Source: Alphaproteobacteria bacterium | GTDB lineage: Bacteria > Pseudomonadota > Alphaproteobacteria > Bin95 | DNA length: 64,000 nucleotides | Assembly (NCBI GenBank): GCA_964291285.2 | Contig: OZ219786.1 | Coordinates: forward strand, 192,001 to 256,000 | Direction: 5' to 3' | In this document: positions 35,265 to 57,996 of the stretch, one piece after another | Numbering within the stretch: position 1 is the stretch's first letter | Layout of the letters: the number at the start of each line of letters is the position of its first letter | Made by a program: the position numbers and the translations under genes | The notes under the pieces: generated by a model | Seen by the model: only the letters and a program-made list of their open reading frames with translations | What the model was told of the DNA's origin: nothing | Database searches by the model: none

Positions 35265-35597
35265 ATGACGACAGCAAGGATGGCGATGCCCGGCAATACG
35301 GCGAGCACGTTCCTGGTCCACTATTTCGGCGGCGGCCTCGACGGCGACGACCGCTTCGTGGTCGAGCGGTTCCGCGCCCTGGCCTGCGGCGACATTCGTC
35401 CGGTCCGGGACGGCGAGGAGAACGCGAAGGGGCGGCGCAAGGTCAGGCGCACCGTGGTCTCGCGCAAGGAGGCCGAGGCGATGCGCCCGGAGCGCACCGA
35501 GATCATCATCTGCACCGGCCTTCGCACCCGCGGGGGGAAACAGGCCTGGGGTTCGGTTGCGGCGGGCCTCCTGTGCGACCGCAAGCAGCGCGGCTGA
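35265..35597 (+). CDS. Conserved small hypothetical protein (zinc-finger module partner, copy 1)
   Basis: Homologous to 56251-56565 (FLVH.FG.GL..D...VVER.R...GDIR...RP.R.EI.IC.G...Q.WGS); GGAG RBS. Confidence 0.75.
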   Translation: MTTARMAMPGNTASTFLVHYFGGGLDGDDRFVVERFRALACGDIRPVRDGEENAKGRRKVRRTVVSRKEAEAMRPERTEIIICTGLRTRGGKQAWGSVAAGLLCDRKQRG

Positions 35598-35684
35598 GCG
35601 CTTTCCCGAGGGACGTCCCGCCGGCCCGGCCGGGTCGGCGGGACGATCCTCTTCCGTTTTCCCCACGGCAAGGAGAACGCTCCC

Positions 35685-36743
35685 ATGTGCGAGCAGCAGG
35701 ACATCGGGGCCCGGCGCGCGCGGAACCTGGAGCGCTGGCATCGTCGGGTTGCCGACCGGCGTGCGCGCGGCAAGTGCATCGGGTGCGGCAAGCGCGAACC
35801 CGAGCCCGCGCGGACCCTGTGCGGCAAGCGCGAACCCGAGCCCGCGCGGACCCTGTGCGCGCCCTGCGGCGAGAAGCGGAACCGGGCGAGCCGGGCCAGG
35901 GACGCAAGGCTGCGCACCGCCGGCCTCCCCCGGAGAGACCCCGACAAGGCCCGCGCCCAGGAGCGCGACCGGTCCCGCCGCGAGGCTGAAATGCGCCGCA
36001 ACGCCGGGCTCTGCATCCGGTGCGGCAAGCAGCCGGCCGCCGATGGCCGCGCGTCCTGCGAGCCGTGCCTGGAGAAGCGCCGGGCAGCCGACCGCGCGAA
36101 ATACGCCGCCGGGAAAGCCGCCGGCCTCAAGTATGGCGGGGCCGATGCCGAAGCCAAAAGGCGCGCCGCCCGGGCGAAGAGCAAGCGCCGCCAGAAAGCC
36201 CGGATCGAGACGGGACTCTGTATCCGCTGCGGCAGGCAGCCCCCTGCCGGGGGCGGAACCACCTGCCAGCCCTGCCGCGACAGGAGGCAGGCGGCGGAAC
36301 GGCGGCAATACCGGGACCGGCGCCGGGCCGGGCTCTGCACCCGGTGCGGCGCCGCCGTCCATGACGGTCTGTCGCGCTGCGCTGCGTGTGCCGCCATCGA
36401 GGAGGCCAGCCACGACCCGGAGCGCAAGAACGCGCGCTCGCGGCAGTTGTACGCCCGGCGCCGGGCCGCCGGCCTGTGCACGGCCTGCGGGGCGCCGTCA
36501 CAGGGGGCGGCGCGCTGTGCGCCCTGTGCCGGGAGGTCGTATCACGGCTCGGCGCATTTCAGGGGCATCCCGGTCCACGATCCGGTCTGGACCGTGATCG
36601 AACTGGAGACCGGCCGCGAGCACGGTCCGTTCGACGATCCGGCCGATGTCGCCCTCTGCCTCGCCTTCGGGAAGCTCGACCGCAACCGCGTCGAGATCGT
36701 CGCCGACGCCCCCGTCACCGCCTCCTTCACCGCCTGGACCTGA
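35685..36743 (+). CDS. Tandem C4 zinc-finger-array protein (5 fingers) with a conserved C-terminal domain
   Basis: Repeats of RR..GLCxxCG-x8-10-CxxC with Arg-rich linkers; AAGGAG RBS; paralogue at 56701-57996. Confidence 0.8.
   Translation: MCEQQDIGARRARNLERWHRRVADRRARGKCIGCGKREPEPARTLCGKREPEPARTLCAPCGEKRNRASRARDARLRTAGLPRRDPDKARAQERDRSRREAEMRRNAGLCIRCGKQPAADGRASCEPCLEKRRAADRAKYAAGKAAGLKYGGADAEAKRRAARAKSKRRQKARIETGLCIRCGRQPPAGGGTTCQPCRDRRQAAERRQYRDRRRAGLCTRCGAAVHDGLSRCAACAAIEEASHDPERKNARSRQLYARRRAAGLCTACGAPSQGAARCAPCAGRSYHGSAHFRGIPVHDPVWTVIELETGREHGPFDDPADVALCLAFGKLDRNRVEIVADAPVTASFTAWT
35784..35859 (+). repeat. Exact 36-bp in-frame tandem duplication within finger 1
   Basis: TGCGGCAAGCGCGAACCCGAGCCCGCGCGGACCCTG occurs twice in tandem. 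Confidence 0.9.
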
Positions 36744-36937
36744 CATGCTGTCCCGGGCGGCGATGGCGGCGCTCGCCTGGCCGCGATCCGCCGCACCGTC
36801 CCTGTGTCGTGGAGAGGAGTGAAGCACCTGCCGGGCGAGTGTCCGGCAGGGCGGAGGAGAGGAACTCCCCGCGCCGATGCCGGACCGGTGTCCGGCACAG
36901 GTCGCCGGGCAGGGCAACGGCAAAGGAGACCCCGCCC

Positions 36938-37183
36938 ATGTTCCATCCCGATACATCCCTCGACCTCCCGCTCGGCTGCGACCTGCTCGCCGAACTCGGC
37001 GTCGACCGCCGCACCGTCCGCGAGATCGCCGGGGACGAGCGCGCCATCCGCTGCCCCGACAGGGGCGCGGCCTGTCCGGTGCACGGCTTCGCGAGCCTCT
37101 TCCCGGAACCGGCGTTCGGGATGTCCCTCCAGGACCCGGCGGCGTCGCTCCCTCCGGCGAACCGGAGGTGGAGGAGGGCCTGA
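36938..37183 (+). CDS. Small hypothetical protein
   Basis: AAAGGAG RBS and ATG, co-oriented within the module. Confidence 0.5.
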   Translation: MFHPDTSLDLPLGCDLLAELGVDRRTVREIAGDERAIRCPDRGAACPVHGFASLFPEPAFGMSLQDPAASLPPANRRWRRA

Positions 37184-37275
37184 AGAGATTGAACGGGCGG
37201 GGGTTCGGGGGAGTGACCCCGGCCCCGTCCGTTCGCAACCCATCGTCATCAACACGAACCTGAAGGAGTATCGCA

Positions 37276-37725
37276 ATGAGCTTCGGATTGAACAAGGTGC
37301 AGATCATCGGCCGCCTCGGCGCGGACGTCACCGTCAACCACCTCACCTCGGGCGGGCGCGTCGCCAACCTGAGCATCGCGACCGACGAGTCGTTCATCAA
37401 CAAGCAGACCGGCGAGAAGGTCGACAGGACCGAGTGGCACCGGGTCGTGACCTTCCAGGACGGGCTGATCGACATGCTCGCCAGGCACGCCATGAAGGGC
37501 CGGCTGGTCTACATCGACGGCAAGCTCCAGACCCGGCGCTGGTCCAGGCCGGGCGAGGACGGCGACCGTTTCTCCACCGAGATCCTGCTGGTCCCGGGTG
37601 GGCGCGTGCAGTTCCTCGACAAGGCGAACGGCAACGCCGCGCAGCCCGGCCCGGACGCGACGAGCGACGCCGGCCCCGTGCCGGCCGGCGGCGACCCGAT
37701 GGACGGGGACCATATCCCGTTCCAG
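37276..37725 (+). CDS. ssb: Single-stranded DNA-binding protein; the expected stop codon reads CAG, so the ORF runs on to 38352
   Basis: Motifs NKVQIIGRLGAD, TEWHRVV and GKLQTRRW, with tail DGDHIPF followed by CAG. Confidence 0.88.
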
Positions 37726-37749
37726 AGCTTCCCGTTCTTCCTTCCCCAC

Positions 37750-37782
37750 AGGGCCGGCGCCTCGCGCGTCGGCCCTTTCTTC
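37750..37782 (+). terminator. Rho-independent terminator-like hairpin after ssb
   Basis: AGGGCCGGCGC-CTCGC-GCGTCGGCCCT followed by TTCTT. Confidence 0.55.
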
Positions 37783-37906
37783 ATGCAGGCAGGTTCGAGT
37801 CTCGCCGCGGCGCATACGGAGTGGGAGCGAGGCTGGAAAGCGGGTGAACCGCGCGAGGAGGAGAGGGAGCCCGCTCGCGCACCCGTCACGCGACCCGGAG
37901 AACCCG

Positions 37907-38134
37907 ATGAGCACCATCTCCTTCCGCCGCATCGCCCCCGACGAATCCCGCATCTACCGGGACGGCGACCATGTCGGCGACATCCACGCCTTCGACGACA
38001 GCATCCGGCCGGGGCGCAGGGTGTTCGCCATACATCTCGACGAGGACCCGCGCGGCCCCGTCTATCTCCACGACCGCACCCGCATCCGCGAGACCGCCCG
38101 GCAGCGGGTCGACTCCCATCCCCTGTGGGGTTGA
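37907..38134 (+). CDS. Small hypothetical protein
   Basis: GGAG RBS, good codon usage, MSTISFRRIAPDESRIY... Confidence 0.6.
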   Translation: MSTISFRRIAPDESRIYRDGDHVGDIHAFDDSIRPGRRVFAIHLDEDPRGPVYLHDRTRIRETARQRVDSHPLWG

Positions 38135-38548
38135 CGCAAGGGCGGGCAACGGCGCCTCCCGCTCCGGCGCCGTGCCGGCCGAACCGACGATGGGGTCCGT
38201 GCAGGGCCAGAGAAATACGCCACCCCGCTGTACTGTCCCATTGTGCCACACGTGCTCTCTCCAGCAACCCCTTCGGGGTCCTCCGGTCGCTGCGCTCCCT
38301 GCGGCCCGGGCAAGAAGCTCCAGGGGCGGACCGTGAAAGCCGGCGACCGTGAAGATCGCGTGTCAGAGGCCGAGCACGCCTGGCATCGGCGGTGCGAACG
38401 CGATCTTCCGCACCACTCGCCGACTTTCCGCACCACTCCGCCCCAAGAGCTTCCAGGCCCGGGTGCTTCCGTTGCGCGCGCGTGACCCAACAGGACATCA
38501 CGTCGGGGATCGGCCCCGAACCTGCAACCCGATCGCAAGGAGATCGTC

Positions 38549-39475
38549 ATGACCTTCCATACCGACACCGTCGAGACCGCCGGACAGTCCGCAACCGCGA
38601 CCGTCTGCGAACACGCCGCCCTCTACGGCGCCACCCCCGAGCGCGACGAGCTCGACCCCCGCGAGGTCTGGGACGAGGACGATGCGCTGACCGCAATCGG
38701 CGAGGCCTTCCGCATCCTCGCCGAAGGCGCCTGCCCCGACGGCACCCAGCTCGCCGACGAACGCGAGAGCCTGCTGTGGGGCTTCGTCAACATGCTCCAC
38801 GCCCAGAGCCGCCGCCTCGACCGCAGCGTCGACCGGCTCAGCCCGGACCTGCGCGACCTCCAGCGCGAGCAGGACGGCTCCGAGATCAAGTCCCGCGACC
38901 TGGAGCTCGTCACCGACCGCGCGCAGAACCTCGGAGACCGGCGCGACGCCTTCGAGAAGATGCGCAACACCGCCGCGCACGCCTACCGCGAAGAGACCGG
39001 CGACATGTGGCGGCCCCGGCACGGCAGCCACGCCAGCCAGACCGGACATCTGACCTCCGCCGCCATCGACGCCCGCGACTTCGTCCGCGCCCGAAAGGAC
39101 CGCAAGACACAGGCTCATCTGCCCCAGGGAACCCTCGTCGCCATCGCCGGCGGCAAGGACATCGCAAACCCGGCGGCCGTCATCGAGCGCCTCGACAAGG
39201 TCCGCGCCAGGTATGCCGACCTCGTCCTCGTCCACGGCGGCGGCCCCGGCGTCGAGAAGATCGCCGCAAGCTGGGCAGAGCGCAACGGCGTCCACCAGGT
39301 CGTCTGCAAACCGGACTGGGACAGGCACGGACGCGCCGCTCCGTTCCGCCGCAACGACGAACTGCTCAACCTCCTGCCCAAGGGCGTCATCGCCTTCCCC
39401 GGCTCCGGCATCACCGACAACCTCGTGGACAAGGCCCGCAGCCTCGGCATCCCGGTCATGCGCTGCCCCGCCTGA
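38549..39475 (+). CDS. DUF2493 / YspA-like SLOG-family protein typical of alphaproteobacterial mobile elements
   Basis: Motifs LVHGGGPG.EKIA..WA, PDW.RHGRAAPFRRND and AFPGSGIT.NL. Confidence 0.8.
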   Translation: MTFHTDTVETAGQSATATVCEHAALYGATPERDELDPREVWDEDDALTAIGEAFRILAEGACPDGTQLADERESLLWGFVNMLHAQSRRLDRSVDRLSPDLRDLQREQDGSEIKSRDLELVTDRAQNLGDRRDAFEKMRNTAAHAYREETGDMWRPRHGSHASQTGHLTSAAIDARDFVRARKDRKTQAHLPQGTLVAIAGGKDIANPAAVIERLDKVRARYADLVLVHGGGPGVEKIAASWAERNGVHQVVCKPDWDRHGRAAPFRRNDELLNLLPKGVIAFPGSGITDNLVDKARSLGIPVMRCPA

Positions 39476-40818
39476 CACGCAGCACCCACGGGCCGCGTCG
39501 TCTCCGCTCCGGCGGCGGCGCGGTCCGTTTCCGTATGCGCACACCCGTCGCGCGACAGCTACGCCTCGCGCGCGCTTCGCGCCGCGCCCGTGCGGCGCCT
39601 GCCCCGGACTGCGGTCCGGGGCTGCCGCATCACGCGCCGCTGCACCATGCTTCGCATGGGTGCATCGCGGGCTGCGCCGAGCCCGGCGCAGGGCCGCCGG
39701 CACTGCTGACCCGCCCACTGCCGGCGCTGCTGCCGGACCGGCACGACACCGTGCTTCGCACCGCTGCCCGCAGTCCTGCAGGCGCCGCCGTCGGCGCCTC
39801 CGATCGCAACGGCTATCGCAACCGTCACCGCACCCGCGCGGCTGACGCCGCGGTAACGGGTGCGCCATCCCCGTCTGCGTCTGCGGCAATGTGTGAGCAG
39901 CACGCGATCACCCTGAACAGCCCCGCTTTCGTCCAGCACGCCTGTATCGCGGTAACATGTGCGCGGCGCCCTTCGGCTCCGCGGAACATGTGCGGCGGCG
40001 CCCGTGTCGCCGAGGTAACGCCGCCGGCTCCGGTGCGCCATGTGTGAAGACTGCCCTCCGCCGTTTGCACGCCGCGCCGCGTTCTGTTACCTCTGCGACC
40101 GGACGACAACGCGGAACGCGCCCGAAGATCGTGGACCGGTCGTCTCGCTCAATCGCCGCGACGGCTCCTGTCCCTTGTGACGCCGGCGTTTCAGGCGATG
40201 GTGGTGTGCAGGGCAACCTCGCCCGATCTCGACTCCGTTCGGAGTTTTACCGTCACACCCGACGCATCCTTGATGCAGGCGTTGCCATGGCTGCCCGTGT
40301 CCGCTGCTGGCCGCCCATGCCGCGGGCGAGCGCAGGTCTGTCCGCTCCTGTCACGCCGGGAAAGGTCGCACCGGATTGGTAGCTCCCGTGTTTGCCGCAA
40401 ACACATGCGCGATATCAGGAGGTTGGGCGCCGCCTCGCCGGACTCCACCGGACATGGCGGCCCCTTCCGCCCCCGCTGGATATGGACTTGCTCCTGCGAA
40501 ACTACCAGTCTGGTATCGCCCTCGCATACGCTGCACCATGACAGCTACCGGTCCGGCAGCTGTCCGGAGGCCGCGTTCGTCCGCGAGTTCGGCCCGCCAC
40601 GCCAAACGACCGGGGGCGGCGCGGCCCCGGGGATCTGAAAGAACCGGAACTCTCCCGAATCGTAAGCGTTCGGTCACGAGGTGATTGGGGCGATGACAGC
40701 ACTGAGCGAATGCAGACGAGCCCCGGGGCAATGCGTCGTTGCCACTGTCACCCTCATCATCGTCACCCTTTGACCGAACGCTTACTCCGAATCCATACGC
40801 AAGAACGGGCAAAATCGC

Positions 40819-41205
40819 ATGACATCGTCACTCCAGAAGAACATCCGGGTCACCGCAGACCAATGGAAGCGTATCGAAACGGCGGCCAGGGAGCGGCAGG
40901 TTTCGCCCAATCGGCTCGTCGTCGAGCTCGCCATCGAGGCCCTCGACCGGCGCGAATGGCCCGGCACAGGGGCCGAAATCAAGGGGCGGGCCTCCTTCTT
41001 CGCCGCTCAGGCCATCGCCCGGGACCTCATTGCCGACGGACGAGAGAATGAAATCGAGGAGATTCTACAGTTCGCCTCGGCGCTGGTGTCCGAGACCACC
41101 AAGCATATCGGTGAACAGGACCGGCGTACCCGGTTTGCTTCTTTGCCGTCGCCGGGCAGAGAAAATTCCCTTCGACAGCCTGGCCTCGTGCAGAGCCTTG
41201 CATGA
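40819..41205 (+). CDS. Ribbon-helix-helix-like small DNA-binding protein
   Basis: KNIRVTADQWKRIETAARERQVSPNRLVVELA has a beta-alpha-alpha pattern. Confidence 0.5.
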   Translation: MTSSLQKNIRVTADQWKRIETAARERQVSPNRLVVELAIEALDRREWPGTGAEIKGRASFFAAQAIARDLIADGRENEIEEILQFASALVSETTKHIGEQDRRTRFASLPSPGRENSLRQPGLVQSLA

Positions 41206-41249
41206 TGTGATGTGGCGCGCCGCCGACGCTTTCGCGGGTTAAACCGGTG

Positions 41250-43328
41250 CAGGGCGAATTAATTGTCTGCCTGTGGGCCATGTTGAGGTGGGGTCCGGGG
41301 TGGCCATTTTTTTCTTGATATGTCAGTGTGCCGGTCATGGCGAGGTTTCTGTTTGCGGGTGTTTGGGTTGATCTTCGCGCGGTCACGGTGCGCCCGACCT
41401 GGGGGGCACGGGAGCACCGGCGCTGGGACGATTTGGTAGCGGCGCACCACTATCTGCGGTTCCACGGCATCATCGGCAAGGGTCTGCGCCATGTCGCGGT
41501 TCATGGCGAGGCCTGGCTTGCCCTGGTTGGCTGGCAGCCTGGAGCGTTCAAGGTGGGAGCGCGGGACCGCTGGATCGGGTGGTCGGCGGAGCAGCAGTTC
41601 CGTCGCCTGCATCTGGTTGCCAACAACTCGCGCTTTGTCATCCTGACGCCTGAGCGGGTTCCCAACCTTGCCTCGCGGGTGCTGGGGCTGAGCGTGCGGC
41701 GGCTGTCGCAGGACCTGCGGGCGGCGCATGGCTATCCGGCTGTTGTGGCGGAGACGTTTGTGGACGTCTCGCGCTTCGCCGGCACCTGCTACCGCGCGGC
41801 CAACTGGCGCTCTCTGGGTCTGACGCGCGGCTTTGCCCGCGAGCCCGGAGGGGTGGCGCGCTGGCGTCACCACGGCCAGCCCAAGGAGGTCTTCGTGTTC
41901 GAACTGACACACGGCGCCCCCGAGGCGCTGAGCCATCCCGAGATACCGGCAGACTGGAACGCTGAGCAGCACACCGAGCCGATGGCGGCGCCCCGGCTGC
42001 GCAGCCTGTTCGAGTGTTTGGGCGAGGTGCCCGAATACCGCCATGCCCGGGGCAAGCGCTATGCGCTCACCACCATTCTGACGCTGGCCGTTGCCGCCCG
42101 GCTTGCCGGATACCGGGGTGTGAACGCCTTCGCCCAGTTCGCCGCCCTGCTCTCCCAGAAGCAACTCAAGGCGGTGGGCGCCTTCTGGAGCCCATCCAGG
42201 CAGTGCTACACGCCGCCGGCGGTCACCACCTTCCACAACATCCTCGCCGCCCTGCCGCCACAGACCCTGGACAATGCCATCGGCCAGTGGGCCGGACAGC
42301 ACAGCAGTGCGCACGCGCCTGTGGCCATGGACGGAAAGGATTTGCGCGGTGCCTCGAAGCAGAGCGAAGACCGGCGCAGGAGGATGGTCGCTGCGGTGGC
42401 GCATGACACCGGCGTGGTCCTCGGGCAGGTCGAAGTCAGCTCCAAAAGCAACGAAATCCCGGCCGTGCGCGAACTTTCCAGCGGTCTCGACCTCACAGGC
42501 CGGATCGTCACCATCGATGCGATGCACGCCCAGCACGAGACCGCGCGTTGCCTGCTCGAACGCCGTGCCGACTACGTGGTCAGCGCGGTGAAGGGCAACC
42601 AGCAGACCATCCTCGAAGACCTCAAGGCGATCGACTTCAGCGATGCGCCCTGGCACGAAACCGTCGACAAGGGCCATGGTCGCATTGAGCGCCGACGCTG
42701 CGCCGTCGTCGACCTCTGCGCTGCCGAGTGGGACGGCTACGCCCACCTTCACGGGCGCCGCCAGGCAATGCGCATGGAACGCGAGCGCAAGATGCTCAAA
42801 ACCGGCAAGCGCAGCATCGAGGTCACCTGGAGCCTGACGTCGCTTGGCGCAGAGCGAGCCGGCCCCAAGGAGCTTCTCGATCTGGTGCGCAACCACTGGC
42901 ACATCGAGAACCGTGTGCACTATGTGCGTGACTTCACCTATGACGAAGACCGTTGCCGGGCATATGTGCGCCACCTGCCCGGAAATCTGGCCTGCTTGAG
43001 CAACGCGGCCATCGCTATCGTGCGCTGCGACGGACGCTTCCGATATGTACCCGAGGCCAACCGGCACTACGCCGCCCGCGCCCAAGAGGCCCTCGACGCG
43101 ATTATGATCGCGCCCAGCGGCTGATACCCCACCCCCCACCGCAATACAGGCTCGGGCCGAAGAACGGCGCAGCAAAACAACTGCGCCCGTCGAGGACGAA
43201 AACACTGGACCGCGGCATCAAGAAACCACCATGACGGCGGCCAGAAACGTCTGGGGTTCCCCAAAACACCGGCAGCCAGACCGAAATCACTCAGACAAAG
43301 CCCGCGGTTCGACTAAAAATTTTCCCTG
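41250..43328 (+). mobile_element. ISAs1-family element
   Basis: Ends CAGGGCGAATT and CAGGGAAAATT (reverse complement); 10-bp target duplication TAAACCGGTG at 41240-41249 and 43329-43338. Confidence 0.9.
41328..43124 (+). CDS. DUF4338 (DruA-like) domain fused to an ISAs1 transposase
   Basis: N-terminal HHYL, RDRWIGW, NNSRFVIL..NLASR, ETFVD and YRAANW. C-terminal DGKDLRG, KSNEIPA, TIDAMH, VKGNQ, HGRIE and HWHIENRVH. Confidence 0.88.
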   Translation: MPVMARFLFAGVWVDLRAVTVRPTWGAREHRRWDDLVAAHHYLRFHGIIGKGLRHVAVHGEAWLALVGWQPGAFKVGARDRWIGWSAEQQFRRLHLVANNSRFVILTPERVPNLASRVLGLSVRRLSQDLRAAHGYPAVVAETFVDVSRFAGTCYRAANWRSLGLTRGFAREPGGVARWRHHGQPKEVFVFELTHGAPEALSHPEIPADWNAEQHTEPMAAPRLRSLFECLGEVPEYRHARGKRYALTTILTLAVAARLAGYRGVNAFAQFAALLSQKQLKAVGAFWSPSRQCYTPPAVTTFHNILAALPPQTLDNAIGQWAGQHSSAHAPVAMDGKDLRGASKQSEDRRRRMVAAVAHDTGVVLGQVEVSSKSNEIPAVRELSSGLDLTGRIVTIDAMHAQHETARCLLERRADYVVSAVKGNQQTILEDLKAIDFSDAPWHETVDKGHGRIERRRCAVVDLCAAEWDGYAHLHGRRQAMRMERERKMLKTGKRSIEVTWSLTSLGAERAGPKELLDLVRNHWHIENRVHYVRDFTYDEDRCRAYVRHLPGNLACLSNAAIAIVRCDGRFRYVPEANRHYAARAQEALDAIMIAPSG

Positions 43329-47551: not shown

Positions 47552-50514
47552 TCCCCCGGGGATGCAAGCGTCTGGCTGAGGTGGATTTTCCGATCGCGGC
47601 GGTGTCGCGCCATGCGGTGCGCGAGAAGTCGATCCGCCACGGCCATCCCTCGACGCTGCATCTGTGGTGGGCGCGGCGGCCTCTGGCCTCCTCGCGGGCC
47701 ATGCTCCTGGCGCTCCTGTTCCCGGACCCCTGCGATCCCGAATGTCCGGACGACTTCAAGGAAGCGGCGCGCAAGGCTCTGCCGGCGGTCGGTTGCGGGC
47801 ACGGCGAAACCGACACGGATATCCGGCGCGGCCTGCTGAAGTTCATCGCAGACTTTGCCAACTGGGACCTCAGCACAAAGCTACCTTGGCTGGAGGCGGG
47901 CCGAGCGCTCGTCAGGGCCGCCCATGGAGAAGAACCGCCCCTGGTGGTGGATCCGTTTGCCGGCGGCGGGTCAATCCCGCTGGAGGCGCTGCGGCTCGGC
48001 TGCGAGGCGTTCGCGAGCGATCTCAACCCCGTGGCCTGCCTCATCCTCAAGGCGATGCTGGAGGACATTCCGCGCCACGGCCCGGGACTGGCCGACGAGT
48101 TACGCGAGGCTGGCGCGGAAATCAGGCGGCAGGCCGAACGGGAACTGTCCGACCTGTATCCGGCCGACCCCGACGGCGCGACGCCCATCGCCTATCTGTG
48201 GGCGCGCACGGTGCGCTGCGAGGCGCCGGACTGCGGCGCCGAAATCCCGCTCATGCGTTCCTTCTGGCTGTGCCGGAAGGCGAAGCGCAAGCGCGCCTTG
48301 CGCCATGCCGTCGAACGGGTCGAGGGAGCGCCGCCGCGGGTGGCGTTCGAAGTGTTCGAACCCGTGGCCGAAAGCGAGGTACGCGGCGGCACGGTGACGC
48401 GCGCCAGGGCGACCTGCCTGTGCTGCGGCGCGGTCCTGCCGCCGGAGCGCGTGCGCGCGCAACTCGCCGCCCGGCGCGGCGGCGCGGATGTGGTTTTCGA
48501 CGAGGGGGGCAACCGGGTCGGCGGGGCGCGGATGACGGCGGTGGTGACCCTCCGGCCGGACGAAGCGGGCCGGCACTATCGTCTGCCGACGGAGGCCGAC
48601 TACGCCGCGGTGCGGGCAGCGCAGGCGCGGGTCGTCGGAATCCTGGAAGACTGGGAGCGCGGCGGCAAGCAGGGGTTGTGTCCCATACCGGATGAACCCC
48701 TGCCGCCCATAGGCACGTTGGGCTTCCGCGTCCAGCGCTACGGGATGCTCCAGTGGGGCGACCTGTTCACCGCACGGCAGAAGGCGGCGCTGGTGGAGTT
48801 GGCACGCCTTGCGTGCATTCATAACAAAGTGAATGTCAAACGAGGCCTCGCATTGGCAATATCGAAACTGTCTGAACTATCCAATTCACTCTGCACATGG
48901 GAGCCACTAGCTGAATGCCCAAGGCATGTGTTTGGACGGCAAGCACTCCCTATAGCTTGGGATTTCGCGGAGGGTGTTTCCAGCTCTGAGTCCAGTGGCA
49001 GTTATACTATTTCTGTGAGGCACGTCGCTTCGGGATCTGATTCTCTGGGTCCAGTTTCTAAGTCTATATCCCTTCAACTTGCCGACGCCAACGAGCATCC
49101 ACTCCCGGACCAGTCCGCTAGCGTCTGGTTCACCGATCCACCCTATTACGACGCGGTTCCATATGCTGATCTCTCCGACTTTTTCCTTGTCTGGCTGAAA
49201 CGCAGTCTACCCGATCACTTTCTTCTTCGGGACCCCTTCGATCCTGAAAATCTCCTCTCACCCAAGACACGCGAGGCGGTGCAGGACGAAACGAAGGAGA
49301 GCGACGGCCGCTCCAAGGACCGCGAATGGTTCGAAGACACGATGGGGAAGGCCTTCGCCGAGGGGCGGCGCGTTCTCGCCGAGGACGGCATCGGATCGGT
49401 CGTGTTCGCCCACAAGACCACCGAAGGCTGGGAAGCCCTGCTCTCCGGCATGATCCGGGGCGGCTGGACCATCACGGGTTCCTGGCCGATCGCAACGGAA
49501 ATGGGGTCTCGCCTCCGCGCCCGGGACTCCGCTGCCCTCGCTACCAGCGTCCATCTCGTCTGCCGCCCGCGCCCGGCGGATGCCCCGGTTGGCGAGTGGG
49601 CCGAGGTGCTCAAGGAACTGCCCTTGCGGGTTGCCGACTGGATGGCGCGCCTGCAGGGCGAGGGTGTGCGCGGCGCCGATCTCGTATTCGCCTGCATCGG
49701 CCCCGCCCTGGAGATCTTCAGCCGCTGCCGCACCGTCGAGACGGCGGAGGGCCAAACGGTCAGCCTGTCGACATATCTGGAGAAGGTCTGGGAAGTGGTA
49801 GGCCGCGCCGCCCTCGAACAGGTGCTCGGCACGGCGGAAGCCGCCGCCCGCAACGGCATGGCCGGCGCGCTGGAGGAAGACGCCCGCCTGTCCGCCCTCT
49901 TCCTGTGGGCTTTTCAGGGCACGAACGAATTGCGGGACAGCGGCCCGGACGATGCCGCGGCCTCCGAAGCGGACGACGCCCTCGAAGAAGAGGTCGCCAA
50001 GGCGACCGCCGGGGGATTCCGCTTGCCGTTCGATGTCGTGCGGCGCTTCTCCCAGCCCATGGGCATCGACCTCGACCGTTGGACAGGGCGGGTGATTGCC
50101 CAGGAGAAAGGCATCGTCCGCCTGCTTCCGGTTGCGGAACGCGCGAAGACGCTGCTCGGCGCCGACGGTGCCCGCAGCGTCCCCGAATGGATCGAGGCCG
50201 GCGCAAGTGCGGACGCGCAGCCAACGCTGTTCTCCGAGCTTGACCCGGTGCCGGACGCCTCGCGGCCCGAGCGCAACGGTTTCGACCCGGATTCCGACCT
50301 GCAATCGCCGGATTCGACCGTCCTGGACCGGGTTCATACGGCGATGCTGCTCCAGACGGGCGGGCATTCGAACGCCTTGCGTCGATTGATCGTTTCCGAA
50401 CAGGAGCGCGGACCGGACTTCCTGCGCCTCGCCAACGCGCTTTCCGCCCTCTACCCGCGCGGCAGCCGCGAGAAGCGGGTTCTGGACGCCATGCTGCTTG
50501 CGGCGCCGAGGTGA
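47548..50514 (+). CDS. DUF1156 amino-DNA methyltransferase
   Basis: LHLWWARRPLA, motif I DPFAGGG, motif IV DPPYY and a Zn-binding insert. Confidence 0.9.
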   Translation: MIPRGCKRLAEVDFPIAAVSRHAVREKSIRHGHPSTLHLWWARRPLASSRAMLLALLFPDPCDPECPDDFKEAARKALPAVGCGHGETDTDIRRGLLKFIADFANWDLSTKLPWLEAGRALVRAAHGEEPPLVVDPFAGGGSIPLEALRLGCEAFASDLNPVACLILKAMLEDIPRHGPGLADELREAGAEIRRQAERELSDLYPADPDGATPIAYLWARTVRCEAPDCGAEIPLMRSFWLCRKAKRKRALRHAVERVEGAPPRVAFEVFEPVAESEVRGGTVTRARATCLCCGAVLPPERVRAQLAARRGGADVVFDEGGNRVGGARMTAVVTLRPDEAGRHYRLPTEADYAAVRAAQARVVGILEDWERGGKQGLCPIPDEPLPPIGTLGFRVQRYGMLQWGDLFTARQKAALVELARLACIHNKVNVKRGLALAISKLSELSNSLCTWEPLAECPRHVFGRQALPIAWDFAEGVSSSESSGSYTISVRHVASGSDSLGPVSKSISLQLADANEHPLPDQSASVWFTDPPYYDAVPYADLSDFFLVWLKRSLPDHFLLRDPFDPENLLSPKTREAVQDETKESDGRSKDREWFEDTMGKAFAEGRRVLAEDGIGSVVFAHKTTEGWEALLSGMIRGGWTITGSWPIATEMGSRLRARDSAALATSVHLVCRPRPADAPVGEWAEVLKELPLRVADWMARLQGEGVRGADLVFACIGPALEIFSRCRTVETAEGQTVSLSTYLEKVWEVVGRAALEQVLGTAEAAARNGMAGALEEDARLSALFLWAFQGTNELRDSGPDDAAASEADDALEEEVAKATAGGFRLPFDVVRRFSQPMGIDLDRWTGRVIAQEKGIVRLLPVAERAKTLLGADGARSVPEWIEAGASADAQPTLFSELDPVPDASRPERNGFDPDSDLQSPDSTVLDRVHTAMLLQTGGHSNALRRLIVSEQERGPDFLRLANALSALYPRGSREKRVLDAMLLAAPR

Positions 50515-50640
50515 CGCCATGAAGCCCCGGATCGCCGAACGACAATCCCCGGGCCTGTCGGCGCCCCGAGACCGGGCCGGCGGCGGGCTTCATCCGGCGG
50601 GGACAGGAACCGGAGAACGTGATCGAAGGAGGACAGGATC

Positions 50641-50898
50641 ATGACGGAAGAAACCGAACTGCTGGACCGTATCACCGTGCGGGCCGATATCTTCGGCGGC
50701 AAGCCGATAATCCGCGACATGCGCATCGCGGTGGAGCATGTTCTGGGCAAGCTGGCGGCGGGAGACAGTGCGGAAACCATCCTCGGCGAGTATCCGTTTC
50801 TCGAGCCCGAGGATATCCGGGCCTGCCTGGTCTTCGCCCATCGTTCCCTGGCCGGCGAGCGTGTCCATGACCGCATTTCCCTGCGACAGGCTTCGTGA
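50641..50898 (+). CDS. DUF433 antitoxin-like protein
   Basis: IFGGKPIIRDMRIAV...ILGEYPFL..EDIRACL. Confidence 0.88.
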   Translation: MTEETELLDRITVRADIFGGKPIIRDMRIAVEHVLGKLAAGDSAETILGEYPFLEPEDIRACLVFAHRSLAGERVHDRISLRQAS

Positions 50899-51269
50899 AG
50901 TTTCTTCTCGATGTCTGCGTGGCGTCGCGCATCCTGCACCGGACCCTGATCGATCTCGGGCACGATGTGCTGTCCGCCCGCGACGGACATGCGAACGCTT
51001 CGGACGAGGCGCTGCTCGCCATCGCCTGCCGCGAAGACCGGGTGCTGGTCACCGAGGACAAGGACTTCGGCGAGCTTGTCTTTCTGCGCGGCCTGCCGCA
51101 TCCGTGTATCGTTCGTCTCGACGGGTTGACGGCCATGGAGGAAGCGGCAGTCATGCGGGACCTGATCGAGCGCCAGGGCGCTGCAATGCGCAAGGGTGCC
51201 ATTATCGTGGTCACCGGAAGGCGCGTGCGGATACGGCCGGCGGGAAATGTCGAAGGCGGCAATGACTAG
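50895..51269 (+). CDS. DUF5615 PIN-like toxin
   Basis: MKFLLD...GHDV...DEALL...RVLVTEDKDFGEL. Confidence 0.85.
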   Translation: MKFLLDVCVASRILHRTLIDLGHDVLSARDGHANASDEALLAIACREDRVLVTEDKDFGELVFLRGLPHPCIVRLDGLTAMEEAAVMRDLIERQGAAMRKGAIIVVTGRRVRIRPAGNVEGGND

Positions 51270-54042
51270 GCATCCCTGGCACAAGGTCGTCACGCCCCGG
51301 CAGGAGGTGCGGGAAGGTCGCTCCTTCAGCCCGGACGAATTCGCCATCGCGCTGGAACAGGTGGTCGCCGGCACGGCGCCGCCCGACTACCGCGACCCGG
51401 CGCAGTTCTTCTCGCGCACCTGCTTCACCCGTGCGCTGACAGACCATGCCGGCATGGTGCTGCGCCGCCTCGCCGGCGAAACGCAGAACACTTCGCCGGT
51501 GCTCACCCTCGTCACCCAGTTCGGCGGCGGCAAGACCCATACCTTGACGGCGCTCTACCATCTCGCCAACGCCGGCGACGGGGTTGCAAGCCTGCCGGGC
51601 GTGTCCGGTCTGCTGGCGGCGGCAGGCGTTTCAAGCCTTCCCGAAGCGCGGGTCGGGGTGTTCGTGGGCAATGCCTGGGATCCCTCCGAAGGCCGCGAGA
51701 CCCCGTGGATCGACTTGGCCCGCCAGCTTGCCGGAGACCGGGGCGTCGCCGCCCTCGGAACGGCGGCGAAGACCACGCCGCCCGGGACCGAGGCTCTCGC
51801 CCGGGTGTTCGCCGTCGCAGAGGCGCCCGTGCTGCTGCTATTCGACGAGGTCCTGAACTTCGTCAACCGCCATCGCGACCGGGCCGAGAGCTTCCACGCC
51901 TTCATCCAGAATCTGACGGTCGCCGTCACCGGGGCCGCCGGGGCGGCGGCGGTCATCAGCCTGCCGCGCAGCCAGGTGGAAATGACGGACTGGGACCGCC
52001 AATGGCAGGACCGCATCACCAAGGTGGTGCGCCGCGTCGCCCGCGACCTGATCGCCAATGACGAAGCCGAGATCGGCGACGTGGTGCGCCGGCGGCTGTT
52101 CGAGGACCTCGGCGACGAGCGGATACGCAAGCGAGTTTCGAAGACCTGCGCGGACTGGTGTTTCGAGAGAACCGCCCGCCTGCCTTCAGAATGGATGTCC
52201 GTGGACAGCGCGACCACAGAGACCAGGGCGCGCGAGTTTCTCAGGCGCCGGTTCGAGGCCTGCTATCCCTTCCACCCTTCGACGCTCTCCGTCTTCCGGA
52301 GGAAATGGAGCGCGCTTCCCCAGTTCCAGCAGACCCGCGGTACGCTTGCCATGCTGGCCCAGTGGATCTCCTGGGCGGCGCGCCAGCACTTCCGGCAGGC
52401 GCGGACGGAGCCGTTGATCACGCTCGGTTCGGCGCCGCTGCATGTGCCGGAGTTCCGCGCGGTCGTGCTCGGCCAGTTGGGCGAACAGCGGCTCGATGTG
52501 GCGATAGCCGCCGATCTCGTGGGCGACACGGCCCATGCCCGCGCGCTGGATGCCGACACGAGGGGAGCGCTGCGCGACATTCACCGCCGGGTCGGCGCGG
52601 CCATCCTGTTCGAGTCTTCCGGCGGGCAGGTGGAGAAGGTGGCGCACCTTCCCGAATTGCGCTTCGCCCTGGGTGAACCCGAAGTCGACACCACGTCCGT
52701 CGACAATGCGGCCGGGGCGCTGGAAACAGCGGGGTTCTTCATCCGCAAGATCGGTACGGACGGTTTCCGCATCCATCACCAGGCGACCCTGAAGAAGGTC
52801 GTCAGCGACCGCCGCGCCGCGCTCGACGAAGAAACGGAAATCCGGCCGGCGATCCGCAAGCTGGTGAAGGAAGAATTCGACCGGGGCGCCAGCCTGCCGG
52901 TCGTCCCCTTTCCGGAAGACGGCGCCGCTGTTCCAGACACGCCGCGCCTTGCGCTGGTCGTCGTCGATCCGGAGGCGGAATGGCAGCCCGGACAGCGGAC
53001 AGCGGAGCGGATTGCGCTATGGACAAGGCAGCGGGGCGCTTCGCCGCGGCTTTATCCCGCCTCCCTGGTCTGGTGCGTCAGGAAGCCGGGGCGCGAACTC
53101 AGGGAGCGCGCGGAGCTGTGGCTCGCCTGGCAGCGGGTCTCCCGCGAGGTGGCCGAAGGCGTGCTCGGCACGGAGTTCGACCGGGCGGATCGGGACGAGG
53201 TGCAGGCCAAGGTCAGGGACGCGGAAAACGCGGCGCGGGACGAGGTGTGGGGCGGCTACCGCTTCGTGGCGCTCGCCGACGCCAGGGCCGAGACAGGACT
53301 CAAGACAATCGATCTCGGCGCGGGGCACAGCAGCGCCAGCGAGACGCTCTGCGGCCGCGTGATCACGGCGCTCAGGACCGAAGCACTGCTCAACGAATCC
53401 GTAGGCGCGGGCTATCTCGACCGCCACTGGCCGCCGGCCTTGAGGGAAAGCGGGGCCTGGCCGCTTACCGGCCTGCGCCAGAGCTTTCTCGACGGGTCGC
53501 TGACCCGGCTCGTCGATCCGGATGCCGTCCTGCGCCGCAAGATCGTCGAATTTGTTGCGAACGGCGACTTCGGCCTCGCATCGGGCACGATGGCGGACGG
53601 CGGGTACGGACGGATCTGGCACGCCGAGCCGGTCGGGGCGGAGGAAGTTGCGTTCGAACCGGACGTGTTCCTGTTGACCAGGGCCCGCAGCGAGGAGATT
53701 CGGGCGGTGGAAGCGCCCGGGCTGCAAACGGCGCCAGACGCCGATACACCGACGCCTCCCAAACCCGGCCCCGACGCCGTGCAGGAGCTCGGGACTGAAA
53801 ACGAACCGCGCGGAAACACCGCACCGGTCCGATTGCGCCTGGCTGGAGTCGTACCGCCGGAAGTCTGGAACCGTCTCGGCACGAAGGTCGTTCCCAGGCT
53901 GCGGGCCGGCAAGGGGCTTGTCGTGGAGGTGAAGTTCGAAGCCGAGATTCCAGCAAACGCTCTCGCCGCCATGGAAGACGACCTCCGGCGAACACTGGAA
54001 GACCTGGACCTGGGGGATACAGTCCGTATCGAACGGCTATAG
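51262..54042 (+). CDS. DUF499 AAA+ ATPase
   Basis: Walker A TQFGGGKTH, Walker B LLLFDE, VVRRRLFE and YPFHP. Confidence 0.88.
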   Translation: MTRHPWHKVVTPRQEVREGRSFSPDEFAIALEQVVAGTAPPDYRDPAQFFSRTCFTRALTDHAGMVLRRLAGETQNTSPVLTLVTQFGGGKTHTLTALYHLANAGDGVASLPGVSGLLAAAGVSSLPEARVGVFVGNAWDPSEGRETPWIDLARQLAGDRGVAALGTAAKTTPPGTEALARVFAVAEAPVLLLFDEVLNFVNRHRDRAESFHAFIQNLTVAVTGAAGAAAVISLPRSQVEMTDWDRQWQDRITKVVRRVARDLIANDEAEIGDVVRRRLFEDLGDERIRKRVSKTCADWCFERTARLPSEWMSVDSATTETRAREFLRRRFEACYPFHPSTLSVFRRKWSALPQFQQTRGTLAMLAQWISWAARQHFRQARTEPLITLGSAPLHVPEFRAVVLGQLGEQRLDVAIAADLVGDTAHARALDADTRGALRDIHRRVGAAILFESSGGQVEKVAHLPELRFALGEPEVDTTSVDNAAGALETAGFFIRKIGTDGFRIHHQATLKKVVSDRRAALDEETEIRPAIRKLVKEEFDRGASLPVVPFPEDGAAVPDTPRLALVVVDPEAEWQPGQRTAERIALWTRQRGASPRLYPASLVWCVRKPGRELRERAELWLAWQRVSREVAEGVLGTEFDRADRDEVQAKVRDAENAARDEVWGGYRFVALADARAETGLKTIDLGAGHSSASETLCGRVITALRTEALLNESVGAGYLDRHWPPALRESGAWPLTGLRQSFLDGSLTRLVDPDAVLRRKIVEFVANGDFGLASGTMADGGYGRIWHAEPVGAEEVAFEPDVFLLTRARSEEIRAVEAPGLQTAPDADTPTPPKPGPDAVQELGTENEPRGNTAPVRLRLAGVVPPEVWNRLGTKVVPRLRAGKGLVVEVKFEAEIPANALAAMEDDLRRTLEDLDLGDTVRIERL

Positions 54043-54111
54043 GCGCTGGCGGGTGGAAACGGTCGCTCGGGGAATATCGCCGTCCTGCAAGCTCTCCGGC
54101 GAGGAAACAGT

Positions 54112-54882: not shown

Positions 54883-54960
54883 TGCTCTTCCTTTTTTCAA
54901 CGAAGAGGCGGTTGCGTTGCTCTGCCGGCTGTTCGCGCCCGAAGACTCGGGAGAGGCGCC

Positions 54961-55407
54961 GTGAGGCGCCCGCGCTCCGGGGTGAAGAAGATCGTGCGGT
55001 CCTTTTCCTGCACGGACCTGCAGCGCGACGAGATCGCCACGCGCGCGGCCGCGGCCGGCATGAACCTCTCGCCCTACGTGATCGAGTGCGGCCTGACGGT
55101 CGAACTCGACGCTGCCGAAGACGGGGCCGGCCCGTTGCCGTCGCTTGCCCTCGGCCGGGAGGAACAGCGCCGGCTGCACGACCGCGTCGCCGGGATCGCG
55201 GAACGCTGGCTGGGTCCGGCCGCGCCCGATCCGGCGGGCATGGCGGACCTGCCGGCGGTGCTCGGCGTGCTGCTCGAACGGCTCATGACCGACATGGTCG
55301 AGATGGGGCATGAAGAGCGGATGCGCCGCCTGCTGCTGGATGCCTTCGGCGAGGCCCGGGGCTCGGAGCTTGCCCGCCGGTATGCGGACAAGGCGCGCCG
55401 CCGCTGA
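54961..55407 (+). CDS. MobC/ribbon-helix-helix-like protein
   Basis: GTG start with RBS; RSFSCTDLQRDEIATRAAAAGMNLSPYVIECGL. Confidence 0.6.
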   Translation: MRRPRSGVKKIVRSFSCTDLQRDEIATRAAAAGMNLSPYVIECGLTVELDAAEDGAGPLPSLALGREEQRRLHDRVAGIAERWLGPAAPDPAGMADLPAVLGVLLERLMTDMVEMGHEERMRRLLLDAFGEARGSELARRYADKARRR

Positions 55408-55618
55408 GCCTCGCACGGACATGCGAAAGGAAGGCGGCGGACGGGAAACGGGACGGCGCCCCCGGTGGCGCCCGCGCGGATTTCCCCGCAATGAAGACAG
55501 GCGCGGGACCGGGTACAAGAATAAACGCCCCGGACCGGAGTCGGGGCGACGTGCTGAACGTACAAAGGAAAAGCCCCGGAACCCGCAGGCCCCGGGGCGT
55601 AGTGGCGATGACGATGCC

Positions 55619-56032
55619 TCAGGCGGCGAGGTCCATCTCGTATGCTTCCGGGGGCGGCGCCGGCGGCCGGTTGTCGGCCCGCTCCGGCCTGGGGTCGAGG
55701 AAGTTGATTGCGCCGCGCGGGCCGACCAGGATCTCGGTGGTATAGCGGTCGTTGCCGTCGCGGTCCTTCCACTTCCGGGTGCGCAGCTTGCCGGTGACGT
55801 GCGCCTGGCGGCCCTTGGCGGCGTGCTTGCGCAGCATGGCCACCAGGCCCTCCTGGAAGACGGTGACCCGGTGCCACTCGGTCTGCTGCCTGTATTCCCC
55901 GGACTGCCTGTCCCGGTAGCCTTCGTTGGTGGCGATGCTGAAATTGGCGACTTCGCCGCCGCCGGGGAGGCTGCGGAACTCGGGGTCCGCGCCCAGATTG
56001 CCGATGAGGTCGACGCGATTGAGACCGTTCAT
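55619..56032 (-). CDS. ssb: Single-stranded DNA-binding protein lacking the acidic DDIPF tip
   Basis: Motifs NRVDLIGNLGADPE, TEWHRV and GKLRTRKW; ends EMDLAA. Confidence 0.9.
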   Translation of the reverse strand: MNGLNRVDLIGNLGADPEFRSLPGGGEVANFSIATNEGYRDRQSGEYRQQTEWHRVTVFQEGLVAMLRKHAAKGRQAHVTGKLRTRKWKDRDGNDRYTTEILVGPRGAINFLDPRPERADNRPPAPPPEAYEMDLAA

Positions 56033-56250
56033 GATGCTTGCTCCTTGCAAGGGTTTGATTGCGAGCCGTTGCAACTCACCCCGAACAACCCTTTCCCGAC
56101 CTTCGCGGCGTCGATGCCAGCGCAGGCCGGGGCAGGGAAAGCGGGGAGCGGGATGCCGGGCGAAGGACGCTGCGGAACTCACCCGGCGGGCGGGGCGAAG
56201 GGGGCGCGGACGGAGCGATGCCGCCCGCACCCGGGTCCCCGCCATTGCCG

Positions 56251-56565
56251 TCAGCGGGGGAACCGGCTCCGCTCCAGCATATGGCCCCAGATTGCGGAAC
56301 TGCCCCAATATTGCACCCCCGAGTCGGCCCTCTTCTCGCCCTTGCAGATCAGGATCTCGTTGCGCGCGGGGCGCAGCTCGCGGACGGTCTCCAGCGACAG
56401 GGTCAGCGGACGGCCCTTGCCGCCCGGCAGCCGGCGGATGTCACCGTCGATGCCGGTGCGGTACCGCTCGACCACATAGTGGTCGTCCTGCAGGCCGCGT
56501 CCGAACACGTGGACCAGAAAGCTGTTCGCACCGGGGCGGAAGGCGGACGCATTGGTGGCGGGCAT
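56251..56565 (-). CDS. Conserved small hypothetical protein (zinc-finger module partner, copy 2)
   Basis: Homologous to 35265-35597; AGGAG RBS. Confidence 0.75.
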   Translation of the reverse strand: MPATNASAFRPGANSFLVHVFGRGLQDDHYVVERYRTGIDGDIRRLPGGKGRPLTLSLETVRELRPARNEILICKGEKRADSGVQYWGSSAIWGHMLERSRFPR

Positions 56566-56700
56566 GTCGATAGTCTCCTGTTGGAGGAAGGGGAGCGGGA
56601 GCCGGCCGCCCGGCCACCCGCAGGGATCGCATCGAAAACCCTTTCCCCACCTTCTTCCGGCGTCGATACCGCCAGGGTGGGGAAAGGGAAAACGAGAGCG

Positions 56701-57996
56701 TCAGCGGCCGGCGAATACGGCCGGGCCGGCGTCGGTGACGATCTCGACGTCGTCGAGCGAGAGCTTCGCAAAGGCGAGCGCGGCGGCTACCTCCATTGGA
56801 GTCTCCCAGGTGCCGTGATCAGAGTTGTCGGCAATCCCGATCACGGTGTATCGCGTCGGCAGGTCGGGCATGCCGCGATACGCGTAGCTGCGCTGCCGGT
56901 CGCGGCAGGGGCCGCACTCCCGCATGAGGGGCTCGGGCTCGCGGACGCCGCAGCGGGGACAGAGCCCGGCAGACTGGCGCTCGCGGGTTACCGCATGGTA
57001 GCGGCGGCGGTCGGTGGCAAGGCGCGCCTCGCGGCAGTCCGAGCAGGAATGGGACCCGGGGTCGGGAGGCCGCCTCGTGCAGTGGACACAGACGCCTCGC
57101 GCTTGGGCCTCGGCGATTCTGCGATGCCATCTCGCGCGCTCGGCGGCGCGGCGCTCGTTCCGGCAAGGCGCACATACGGTCGACCCCTCGGCGGGGGAGG
57201 TCTTGCCGCAGCGGATACAAAGCCCTTGGGAGATCCGGGCGAGGGTCCTGCGGTTGTACCGGTCCAGTTCGACGGCCAGACAGGCGTCGCAGGCCAGGCG
57301 CCCGGGCGCGGCGGGTTCCCGGCCGCAATCCACACACAATCCGACGGAGCGGCGGGCATCCCGGCGGCGTCTGGCGGCCTCCCGGTCGCGTTTGGCGGGC
57401 AGCGGCCCGCAGTCCGGGCAGCGGCGGCTGCCGGGAACCGGCGGGGCCTTGCCGCACTCGATGCAGAGCGAGCGGTCGGCCTGCCGGCGGCGGCGGTCGA
57501 TCCGGGCGCGGTAGGTCCGGCGGCGCGCGGCGAGGCAGTCGTCGCAGCACGCATTGCCTTCGGCGGGTGCCCTGTTTCCGCACTGTACGCAGAGGCCGGC
57601 CTGGCGCCGTTCCTCCTTGCGCTCCTGCAGGCGCCGGCGGCTGAGCGCGAGATGTTTCCCGTTGCAGGCGTCGCAAAGCCGTCGGCGGGGTTTCTCGGGC
57701 GTGACGCCGCATTCCTGGCAGAGGCCCCGGTTGCTTCGCAGCAGCCGGCGTTTGCGGGCGGCCTTCCGGTCGCTGGCGCGGCGGTGCTCCTGGCATTCCG
57801 GGCAGTATTTGGCCCCGTCGGGCGGGGAAACCTTGCCGCAGTTGAGGCAAAGGCCGCACGCGGCAAGCCGGTCCCGGGCGCGCGAGGCATTGGACCGCCG
57901 GGCGGGCGCGGCCCCGGTGGCGTTGCCGGAACTGGCCCTGAAGCAATGGAAGCCCGCTGCTTCGGGAGGCGGATGACGGGGGGCAGAAGCCGGCAT
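56701..57996 (-). CDS. Tandem C4 zinc-finger-array protein (8 fingers, ~43-aa period) with a conserved C-terminal domain
   Basis: Eight CxxC-x11-CxxC units. The C-terminus RG.P.....TVI.....HG......VA..LAF.KL....VEIV.DA is shared with 35685-36743. Confidence 0.8.
   Translation of the reverse strand: MPASAPRHPPPEAAGFHCFRASSGNATGAAPARRSNASRARDRLAACGLCLNCGKVSPPDGAKYCPECQEHRRASDRKAARKRRLLRSNRGLCQECGVTPEKPRRRLCDACNGKHLALSRRRLQERKEERRQAGLCVQCGNRAPAEGNACCDDCLAARRRTYRARIDRRRRQADRSLCIECGKAPPVPGSRRCPDCGPLPAKRDREAARRRRDARRSVGLCVDCGREPAAPGRLACDACLAVELDRYNRRTLARISQGLCIRCGKTSPAEGSTVCAPCRNERRAAERARWHRRIAEAQARGVCVHCTRRPPDPGSHSCSDCREARLATDRRRYHAVTRERQSAGLCPRCGVREPEPLMRECGPCRDRQRSYAYRGMPDLPTRYTVIGIADNSDHGTWETPMEVAAALAFAKLSLDDVEIVTDAGPAVFAGR

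Follow-up and report, generated by a model that had tools for sequence, protein, structure and literature searches.

The 64,000-nt stretch of alphaproteobacterial DNA analyzed here (positions 192,001 to 256,000 of contig OZ219786.1, assembly GCA_964291285.2; hereafter, the window) carries two homologous modules, A and B, in each of which a gene for an array of C4 zinc fingers lies next to a gene for a small partner protein. In module A, on the plus strand, the partner gene (partner A, 105-110 residues, basic, beta-rich, and of an unnamed family; 35265-35597) precedes the array gene (ZF-A; 35685-36743), the 352-residue product of which comprises five fingers, Arg-rich connecting helices, and an acidic beta-beta-alpha-beta domain of about 55 residues at the C-terminus (C-domain). 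In module B, on the minus strand, the order is swapped, and the array gene (ZF-B; 56701-57996), encoding eight fingers and a C-domain common with that of ZF-A, is followed by the gene for partner B (104 residues; 56251-56565). Both finger numbers given in the original prediction, which was made from the DNA letters without database searches, were confirmed. Likewise, the C-terminal ~60 residues aligned between the two array proteins (BLASTP, 36% identity over 244 residues, E-value 6e-32), the partners proved homologous despite the swapped order (43% identity, E-value 2e-18), and an ssb (PF00436) was located downstream of the pair in both modules (37276-37725, plus strand, and 55619-56032, minus strand).

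Counted from its true first cysteine pair, ZF-B has periods of 43, 43, 42, 43, 39, 43, and 43 residues, five of the seven matching the spacing predicted for most of the protein. Finger 1 of ZF-A is lengthened by a perfect 36-nt tandem duplication (35783-35854), which is present in one of the 25 copies in the genome and is skipped by a contig of run X1. Each of the 20 Cys positions was retained in 73-74 of 74 aligned five-finger homologues, so the array pattern is not a product of chance. Among 120 listed array homologues, five fingers were most frequent (77), followed by four (16), six (11), eight (10), and seven or three (three each); the C-domain was kept in 114 and the periods were exactly 67-69-39-47 in 64. 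Larger arrays had gained a 43-residue unit at the N-terminus, or 33+47 internally, and the periods of 39, 43, and 47 residues would lie one helical turn apart. Every finger position had its own conserved consensus, including position-specific helices. The array is therefore modular but conservative and not hypervariable. Finger number does vary, as claimed earlier (three to eight among these homologues), but only via a few inherited architectures, and the idea of an expandable, freely variable array was overstated: median ratios of nonsynonymous to synonymous substitution (dN/dS), by simple counting and probably inflated by high GC, were 0.39 for the array and 0.38 for the partner, similar to those of ssb (0.31) and the SLOG gene of the same cassettes (0.41). 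Longer fused array forms were not found, which is weak evidence. The finger gene or its 3′ flank was often struck by IS66-like, serine-recombinase, or triple-integrase units (L075, L076, L081-L086, L111, L044, L052, and L108).

An AlphaFold model of ZF-A (predicted local distance difference test score, pLDDT, 87.7; predicted template modeling score 0.49) placed the start of long helices at the second CxxC and recovered the topology of the C-domain. This modeled helix start and the invariance of CxxC...CxxC are as expected of C4 treble-clef fingers. The array is basic (isoelectric point, pI, 10.5; 18% Arg) and carries Arg and Tyr at invariant helix positions; the partner is likewise basic (pI 10.4) and the C-domain acidic (pI 4.2). 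Fold searches with the whole ZF-A model gave no significant match, including to solved fingers. For the C-domain, the best Foldseek match was a GYF domain (probability 0.66, E-value 0.73), and hhalign against GYF_2 returned a probability of 36.6, above 60 of 60 column shuffles; Pfam GYF had no match in 74 array members, and the domain is perhaps weakly GYF-like, as judged from profile and model. A NUMOD1-like C-domain was a candidate by eye only; the ZF-A model ends in a strand. As for DZR_2 (PF18912), the window proteins fell under the Pfam cut-off and 72 of the 74 members matched at E ≤ 1 (best E-value 4.6e-6), a generic CxxC match.

As had been stated, no recognized family was matched. For both arrays and both partners, no naming family was found in Pfam, PHROGs, NCBIfam (the only match there, to LIC10235, being below the cut-off), or the PADLOC models (0 families), and neither a sequence search of the PDB nor fold searches named either protein. 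Literature searches by title and abstract start, with supplements outside their scope, returned no description of the finger family or the pair. In PMC5512222, none of six terms, 'zinc ribbon', 'treble', and 'GYF' among them, appears.

The partner family comprised 196 clusters at 50% identity, and the model of partner B (pLDDT 80.6) had no significant structural match in fold searches. From 333 partner loci in GTDB genomes, 80 were kept for linkage counts. In 64 of these, the finger gene started within 400 nt after the partner; three others had an insertion in between and four ended at a contig edge. Moreover, among 23 finger-centered metagenome loci, eight of which were set aside for insufficient upstream room, the partner was 5′ of the finger gene in 13 of the remaining 15. 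The ssb was 3′ of the partner in 39 of 66 partner loci with at least 3 kb of room, and the linkage of the array to both partner and ssb, noted in the original prediction, was conserved in other genomes. Apparent partner-array fusions among 33 longer matches were rejected, since they look like frameshifted or read-through gene calls. One genome (G030; L135, L136) had three minus-strand partner copies with no intact finger array called beside them.

The window modules are two of 25 arrays with a C-domain in the genome (G000; 6.1 Mb, five contigs), each of which lies beside a partner and nearly all beside an ssb. They fall into four arrangements. Type A (n = 17) has partner and five-finger array, mostly followed by a small open reading frame (ORF), ssb, a conserved 75-residue ORF (o75), and SLOG; type B (n = 4) has an eight-finger array, partner, and ssb; type C (n = 3) has partner, a one-finger remnant, ssb, and an eight-finger array; and type D has a single member. 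The 5.1-kb A block (34727-39795) recurs at ~90% identity, and the 3.6-kb B block (54905-58503) at 93%, without the relaxase. Of 41 related genomes, 14 had both partner and array, and the array was also found in one further, fragmented genome. All 80 kept partner loci came from metagenome bins, mostly of Alphaproteobacteria, with three gammaproteobacterial records and one from Vicinamibacterales. The sponge Spongia was named for two of the partner-bearing records, and most other such bins are, going by their accession series, presumably sponge symbionts. The partner was not found in PLSDB, and partner and array were both absent from the IMG/VR search results; array searches of PLSDB and phages matched only Clostridium phage-like arrays. 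With 120 listed array homologues, 196 partner clusters, and 25 copies amplified in one genome, the family is large and conserved.

The pair heads a cassette in the order partner, array, o88, o68/o49, ssb, o75 or DUF4326, and DUF2493-SLOG. Motif discovery in the upstream regions returned a sequence, GAG-N3-GAG-N4-GC-N7/8-GGYRARCG (A-motif), that precedes ssb, o68/o49, o75, and DUF4326, and does not precede o88 or SLOG. At a score of at least 12, it was found before six of 1047 background genes versus 14 genes of three held-out cassettes (from genomes G015 and G008). In module A, copies lie on the plus strand 5′ of an 81-residue ORF (36811-36844; genome position C2:228811), of ssb (37165-37198; C2:229165), and of o75 (37819-37853). 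The partner has its own variant, GAGG..AAG..TGGCC-GTGAGCGG (35170-35195, plus strand), kept in an alignment of 55 non-redundant partner upstream regions, and a GC-rich hairpin between the partner A and ZF-A genes (35608-35651, plus strand) is kept in the partner-array intergenic alignment of homologous loci. In modules with 43-period arrays, the A-motif is replaced by AAGGT[CG]GGGAAGGGGTT (B-motif), with three matches in the window versus none in 100 shuffles. All three are on the minus strand, one 5′ of ssb (AAGGT[CG]GGGAARGGGTT; 56087-56103), one 5′ of partner B, where it pairs with an upstream CCCTTTCCCCACC (56637-56653), and one 5′ of ZF-B (58072-58088). Motif type pairs with array type, the A-motif with A-type (five-finger) and the B-motif with 43-period (eight-finger) arrays. 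The A- and B-motifs can be aligned by eye, and under the A model, B sites scored above shuffles (p 0.002). The motifs are 25-35 bp long, with no evident sigma-70 boxes by eye; Rfam gave no match, and of 46 B sites roughly half are within hairpins, several of them followed by T runs.

The motif shared by most cassette genes is newly recognized here. It had been missed in the original prediction and is key to both the context and the order swap: deletion or exchange between motif repeats probably gave the gene orders of types B, C, and D, and with them the swapped order of partner and array. The neighbors of the cassette are tyrosine integrases, single or twin, or large serine recombinases, and beyond it there is often a MobF relaxase or a small DNA-binding gene. 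In array-less sister cassettes, a strawberry-notch helicase occupies the slot of the pair, and RadC, ParB-like, Macro, NADAR, AlkB, and Toprim genes are nearby. C-type elements elsewhere had an eight-finger array, partner, a second eight-finger array, and, further on, ssb, with the B-motif before 9-11 genes per element, most of its genes; Toprim and beta-clamp genes are part of C-type cassettes. Specifically, four such elements (L142, L143, L145, and L152) contained a serine recombinase, two Toprim genes, two eight-finger paralogues, a MobF relaxase at the end, and many small ORFs, mostly behind the B-motif, with a beta-clamp gene in one. At another locus (L149:2847-4628), AlkB-like, Macro, and NADAR genes were inserted in tandem behind the A-motif, a set that suggests protection of transferred DNA from ADP-ribosylation or alkylation. 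Finally, between an A cassette and a MobF relaxase in the window genome (C1:153176-157329), a compact 949-residue gene is followed by two cas1/cas2-like genes, a candidate type II CRISPR-like locus by reading of its sequence.

The remaining window features frame these modules. Twin tyrosine integrases (32883-35032, minus strand) adjoin the A block, the junction being near 34727. Between ZF-A and ssb, the 81-residue acidic ORF (36938-37183, plus strand) belongs to the o68/o49/c115 family (core LLxELGxD, extended as LLxELGxD..IRE.L), a candidate regulator or DNA mimic; whether or not the finger pair is there, most of the A-type cassettes examined have a member directly 5′ of ssb, and C-type cassettes have members in other positions. 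The module A ssb has CAG at 37723-37725 in place of the TAG of sister copies, which extends its ORF over the next gene to 38352. That next gene, o75 (37907-38134, plus strand), has no Pfam match and is followed by a ~160-nt stem-loop (38305-38462) 5′ of the final cassette gene, a DUF2493/YAcAr SLOG protein (38549-39475, plus strand; PF10686, E-value 6e-23). The stem-loop (-64.4 kcal/mol, z-score -4.29; none of 200 shuffles as stable) resembles a single-strand (Frpo-type) promoter in size and position; promoter boxes were not found in it. Most of 24 loci have, 3′ of SLOG (39480-39600 in the window), a conserved hairpin resembling a terminator and, after it, a conserved CCTCGCGCGCGCTTCGCGCC-type sequence. 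A 23-bp inverted repeat (40662-40785) lies 5′ of a NikA-like gene at 40819, in a stretch (40650-40788) skipped in related copies and contigs; an ISAs1-like transposase with a fused DruA-like N-terminal domain (41337-43124) has many near-identical genome copies; and the cargo between the modules (44114-54042) is an Hma-type defence system (HmaA helicase, HmaB methylase, HmaC ATPase) accompanied by two toxin-antitoxin-like pairs, with a 100% identical copy on contig C5. A small NikA/MobC-like gene, a putative ribbon-helix-helix protein by reading (54982-55407, plus strand), bounds the B block, a decayed duplicate of it being at 58409-58546. Beyond ZF-B are a TrwC/MobF relaxase-helicase (58533-62870, minus strand) and, just past the window end, a VirD4-like coupling protein. 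Coupling proteins and a TraG/VirB4-like ATPase are encoded in the genome; PF03135 had no match in it.

The genes present, their linkage, their spread in multiple copies, and the motif shared upstream of most cassette genes are observed; the best explanation is that finger array and partner belong to an establishment cassette of integrative mobilizable or conjugative elements of uncultured marine bacteria, and the neighboring genes are of the establishment type that had been proposed. As to function, we tentatively favor, short of calling it probable, an early-expressed multi-finger DNA-binding factor for establishment or anti-defence, with a weakly GYF-like docking domain. The motif would make the cassette a co-regulated unit turned on after transfer, as in the CUP/ArdK and EGeRS regulons, and recombination between its copies would reshuffle the genes. 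Each GLCxxCG-x9-CxxC unit would bind one zinc, and the second CxxC would start a long Arg-rich helix reaching to the next finger (a treble-clef, GATA-like layout), giving a basic rod along DNA. The acidic GYF-like C-domain may dock another protein, possibly the basic partner. The complex could then coat or mark the incoming element DNA, or a host target, such that the element escapes restriction, silencing, or damage, acting beside genes for SSB, SLOG, Macro, NADAR, AlkB, and strawberry-notch that lie in the same cassette or in a sister one.

Several observations weigh against this reading. Nine of the 80 partner loci were without a finger gene, and the distance correlation of partner with array (0.35) was below that of partner with SLOG (0.61; 16 loci), with co-divergence not above controls; adjacency therefore remains the one argument for the dedicated partnership once proposed, true fusions not having been found. 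The dN/dS values of array and partner, being like those of ssb and SLOG, hold no arms-race (diversifying) signal, the position-specific conserved helices fit a fixed target, as for a regulator, and the GYF match is weak. Moreover, 24 non-redundant regions 3′ of SLOG yielded no origin of transfer (oriT) or conserved nic site; one F-like nic candidate there was rejected for lack of conservation. The nearby relaxase was co-oriented in some loci and convergent in others, and that of module B lies upstream on the same strand, unlike classical leading-region geometry. This mixed orientation and the missing oriT leave early transfer of the cassette a conjecture.

A regulatory role is the most serious rival, which we regard as possible but rather unlikely. 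Array and partner would form a sequence-specific regulator of the cassette, the fingers reading the 25-35-bp A- or B-motif and either repressing, with ArdK-like zygotic induction, or activating. The pair indeed heads the A cassette and carries its own motif variant, each finger position has a set spacing and set helix residues, and the cassette accompanies three unrelated recombinase types, which leaves the motif as the main shared DNA feature. An exact B-motif occurs in 10 genus members (with one lone match in G034), nine of which have a partner at least 70% identical to partner B, the sole exception being a fragmented genome (G014). In R388, ArdK represses ssb, ardC, and other promoters (PMC3937220). 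However, G015 (one contig, 100% complete) has full A-motif cassettes and no partner or array match, which weakens the case for the fingers as master regulator; G008 has A-motif cassettes but only B-type arrays, and G004 has B-type partners and no exact B-motif match. The pairing of motif type with finger type would also be expected from shared descent, and the o68 family, present in the array-less cassettes examined, is a more universal candidate. The G015 and G008 cassettes led us to rank an effector first and an auxiliary regulator second. It is less likely still that the arrays are polydactyl proteins by which bacterial elements read DNA through a modular code, adding or swapping units to recognize long sites. 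Each finger with its helix would then read a short DNA step, the spacing of the units (39, 43, and 47 residues) would amount to whole helical turns, and the sites read would belong either to a new promoter class of the elements or to the defence genes of the host. Two divergent eight-finger paralogues in one element would fit separate targets. Were this so, prokaryotes would have an equivalent of C2H2 or TALE arrays, one that might serve as a programmable scaffold. Long tandem zinc-finger arrays are rarely described in bacteria.

Binding of RNA seems improbable, although Arg-rich helices are typical of RNA-binding antiterminators. Here the array would recognize the purine-rich motif and leader hairpins as an antiterminator or translational switch, consistent with the hairpins and T runs noted at B sites, but the other B sites retain the sequence without a hairpin, Rfam has no match, and the motif persists without the array. 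We give as little credence to a role in converting single-stranded to double-stranded DNA with SSB and the cassette Toprim, the partner being a decayed primase fragment and the fingers akin to a primase zinc-binding domain. By its Atlas features, the partner is close to DUF3854/Toprim clusters (0.93; 158 features shared), and the 3′ position of ssb and the Toprim and beta-clamp genes of C-type cassettes point the same way. The Atlas lead was not confirmed: the partner matched neither the cassette Toprim profile nor anything significant in fold searches, so that a Toprim fragment was not supported, and DUF3854 had one weak match in 301 genomes. It is very improbable, finally, that the fingers have no role with nucleic acids and serve protein contacts or structure instead, for instance to inhibit a host protein or act as its decoy. 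Proteins are the ligands of many C4 treble-clef fingers, and the C-domain is GYF-like, but the Arg content and pI along the array and the invariant Arg and Tyr on its helices speak against it. Under the preferred reading, as an establishment or anti-defence factor, the pair belongs to a whole establishment gene set marked by a sharply defined motif, which provides a concrete candidate DNA target and a list of uncharacterized anti-defence candidates.

GATA and nuclear-receptor treble-clef fingers have a C4 knuckle followed by a basic helix, and polydactyl C2H2 proteins are tandem arrays with conserved spacing. The arrays here share the knuckle, the basic helix, and the conserved spacing, but have no sequence or fold match to these proteins and differ in an 11-residue Cys spacer and long continuous helices between fingers. 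Similarly, the C-domain has the beta-beta-alpha-beta topology and G-[PT]-[FY] turn before the helix of GYF/GYF_2 (DUF4339) domains, yet lacks a Pfam match in the 74 members, has the low profile probability given above, and presents an acidic surface. The closest arrays were those of the Clostridium perfringens phages phiCp-D and phiCP39-O, a similar five-unit GLCxxCG..CxxC and basic-helix repeat (34% identity over 121 residues); these are Lys-rich, without the C-terminal domain by inspection, and hypothetical or unannotated.

The establishment-regulon kind of system is already known, whereas the finger family, partner, and motif were not found in the libraries and literature searched. Genes for SSB and anti-defence are overrepresented in leading regions (PMC11541004), and leading-region islands with Frpo promoters resemble the present cassettes in SSB, uncharacterized small genes, DarB-like neighbors, and a long hairpin before one gene; the word 'zinc' is absent from the main text of that source, and its supplementary family tables could hold related families. 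In the EGeRS regulons of pLS20-family plasmids, conserved upstream sequences likewise define a variable establishment gene set, with two regulatory types per element family (PMC8708921), but EGeRS1 spans 400-600 bp and EGeRS2 has a ribbon-helix-helix repressor, both in Bacillus, as opposed to a 25-35-bp motif in Proteobacteria. The CUP regulon of IncN plasmids and the ArdK regulon of R388 differ in their repeat, and the elements here are chromosomally integrated and multi-copy; no ArdK, ArdA, or ArdB homologue turned up here, no search aimed at them having been made, and the available accounts of CUP and ArdK (PMC5371602, PMC6289460, PMC3937220) make no mention of the finger protein or the partner. 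Even so, these accounts describe small operons of one orientation, each preceded by a conserved repeat, with ssb and anti-defence-type genes as members and repeats that mediate rearrangement, as reported for CUP repeats (PMC5371602). As in a CUP/EGeRS-type regulon, the present cassettes have a repeat before several co-oriented element genes, and they combine ssb with DNA-protection genes, namely Macro, NADAR, AlkB, RadC, and strawberry-notch in the sister cassettes.

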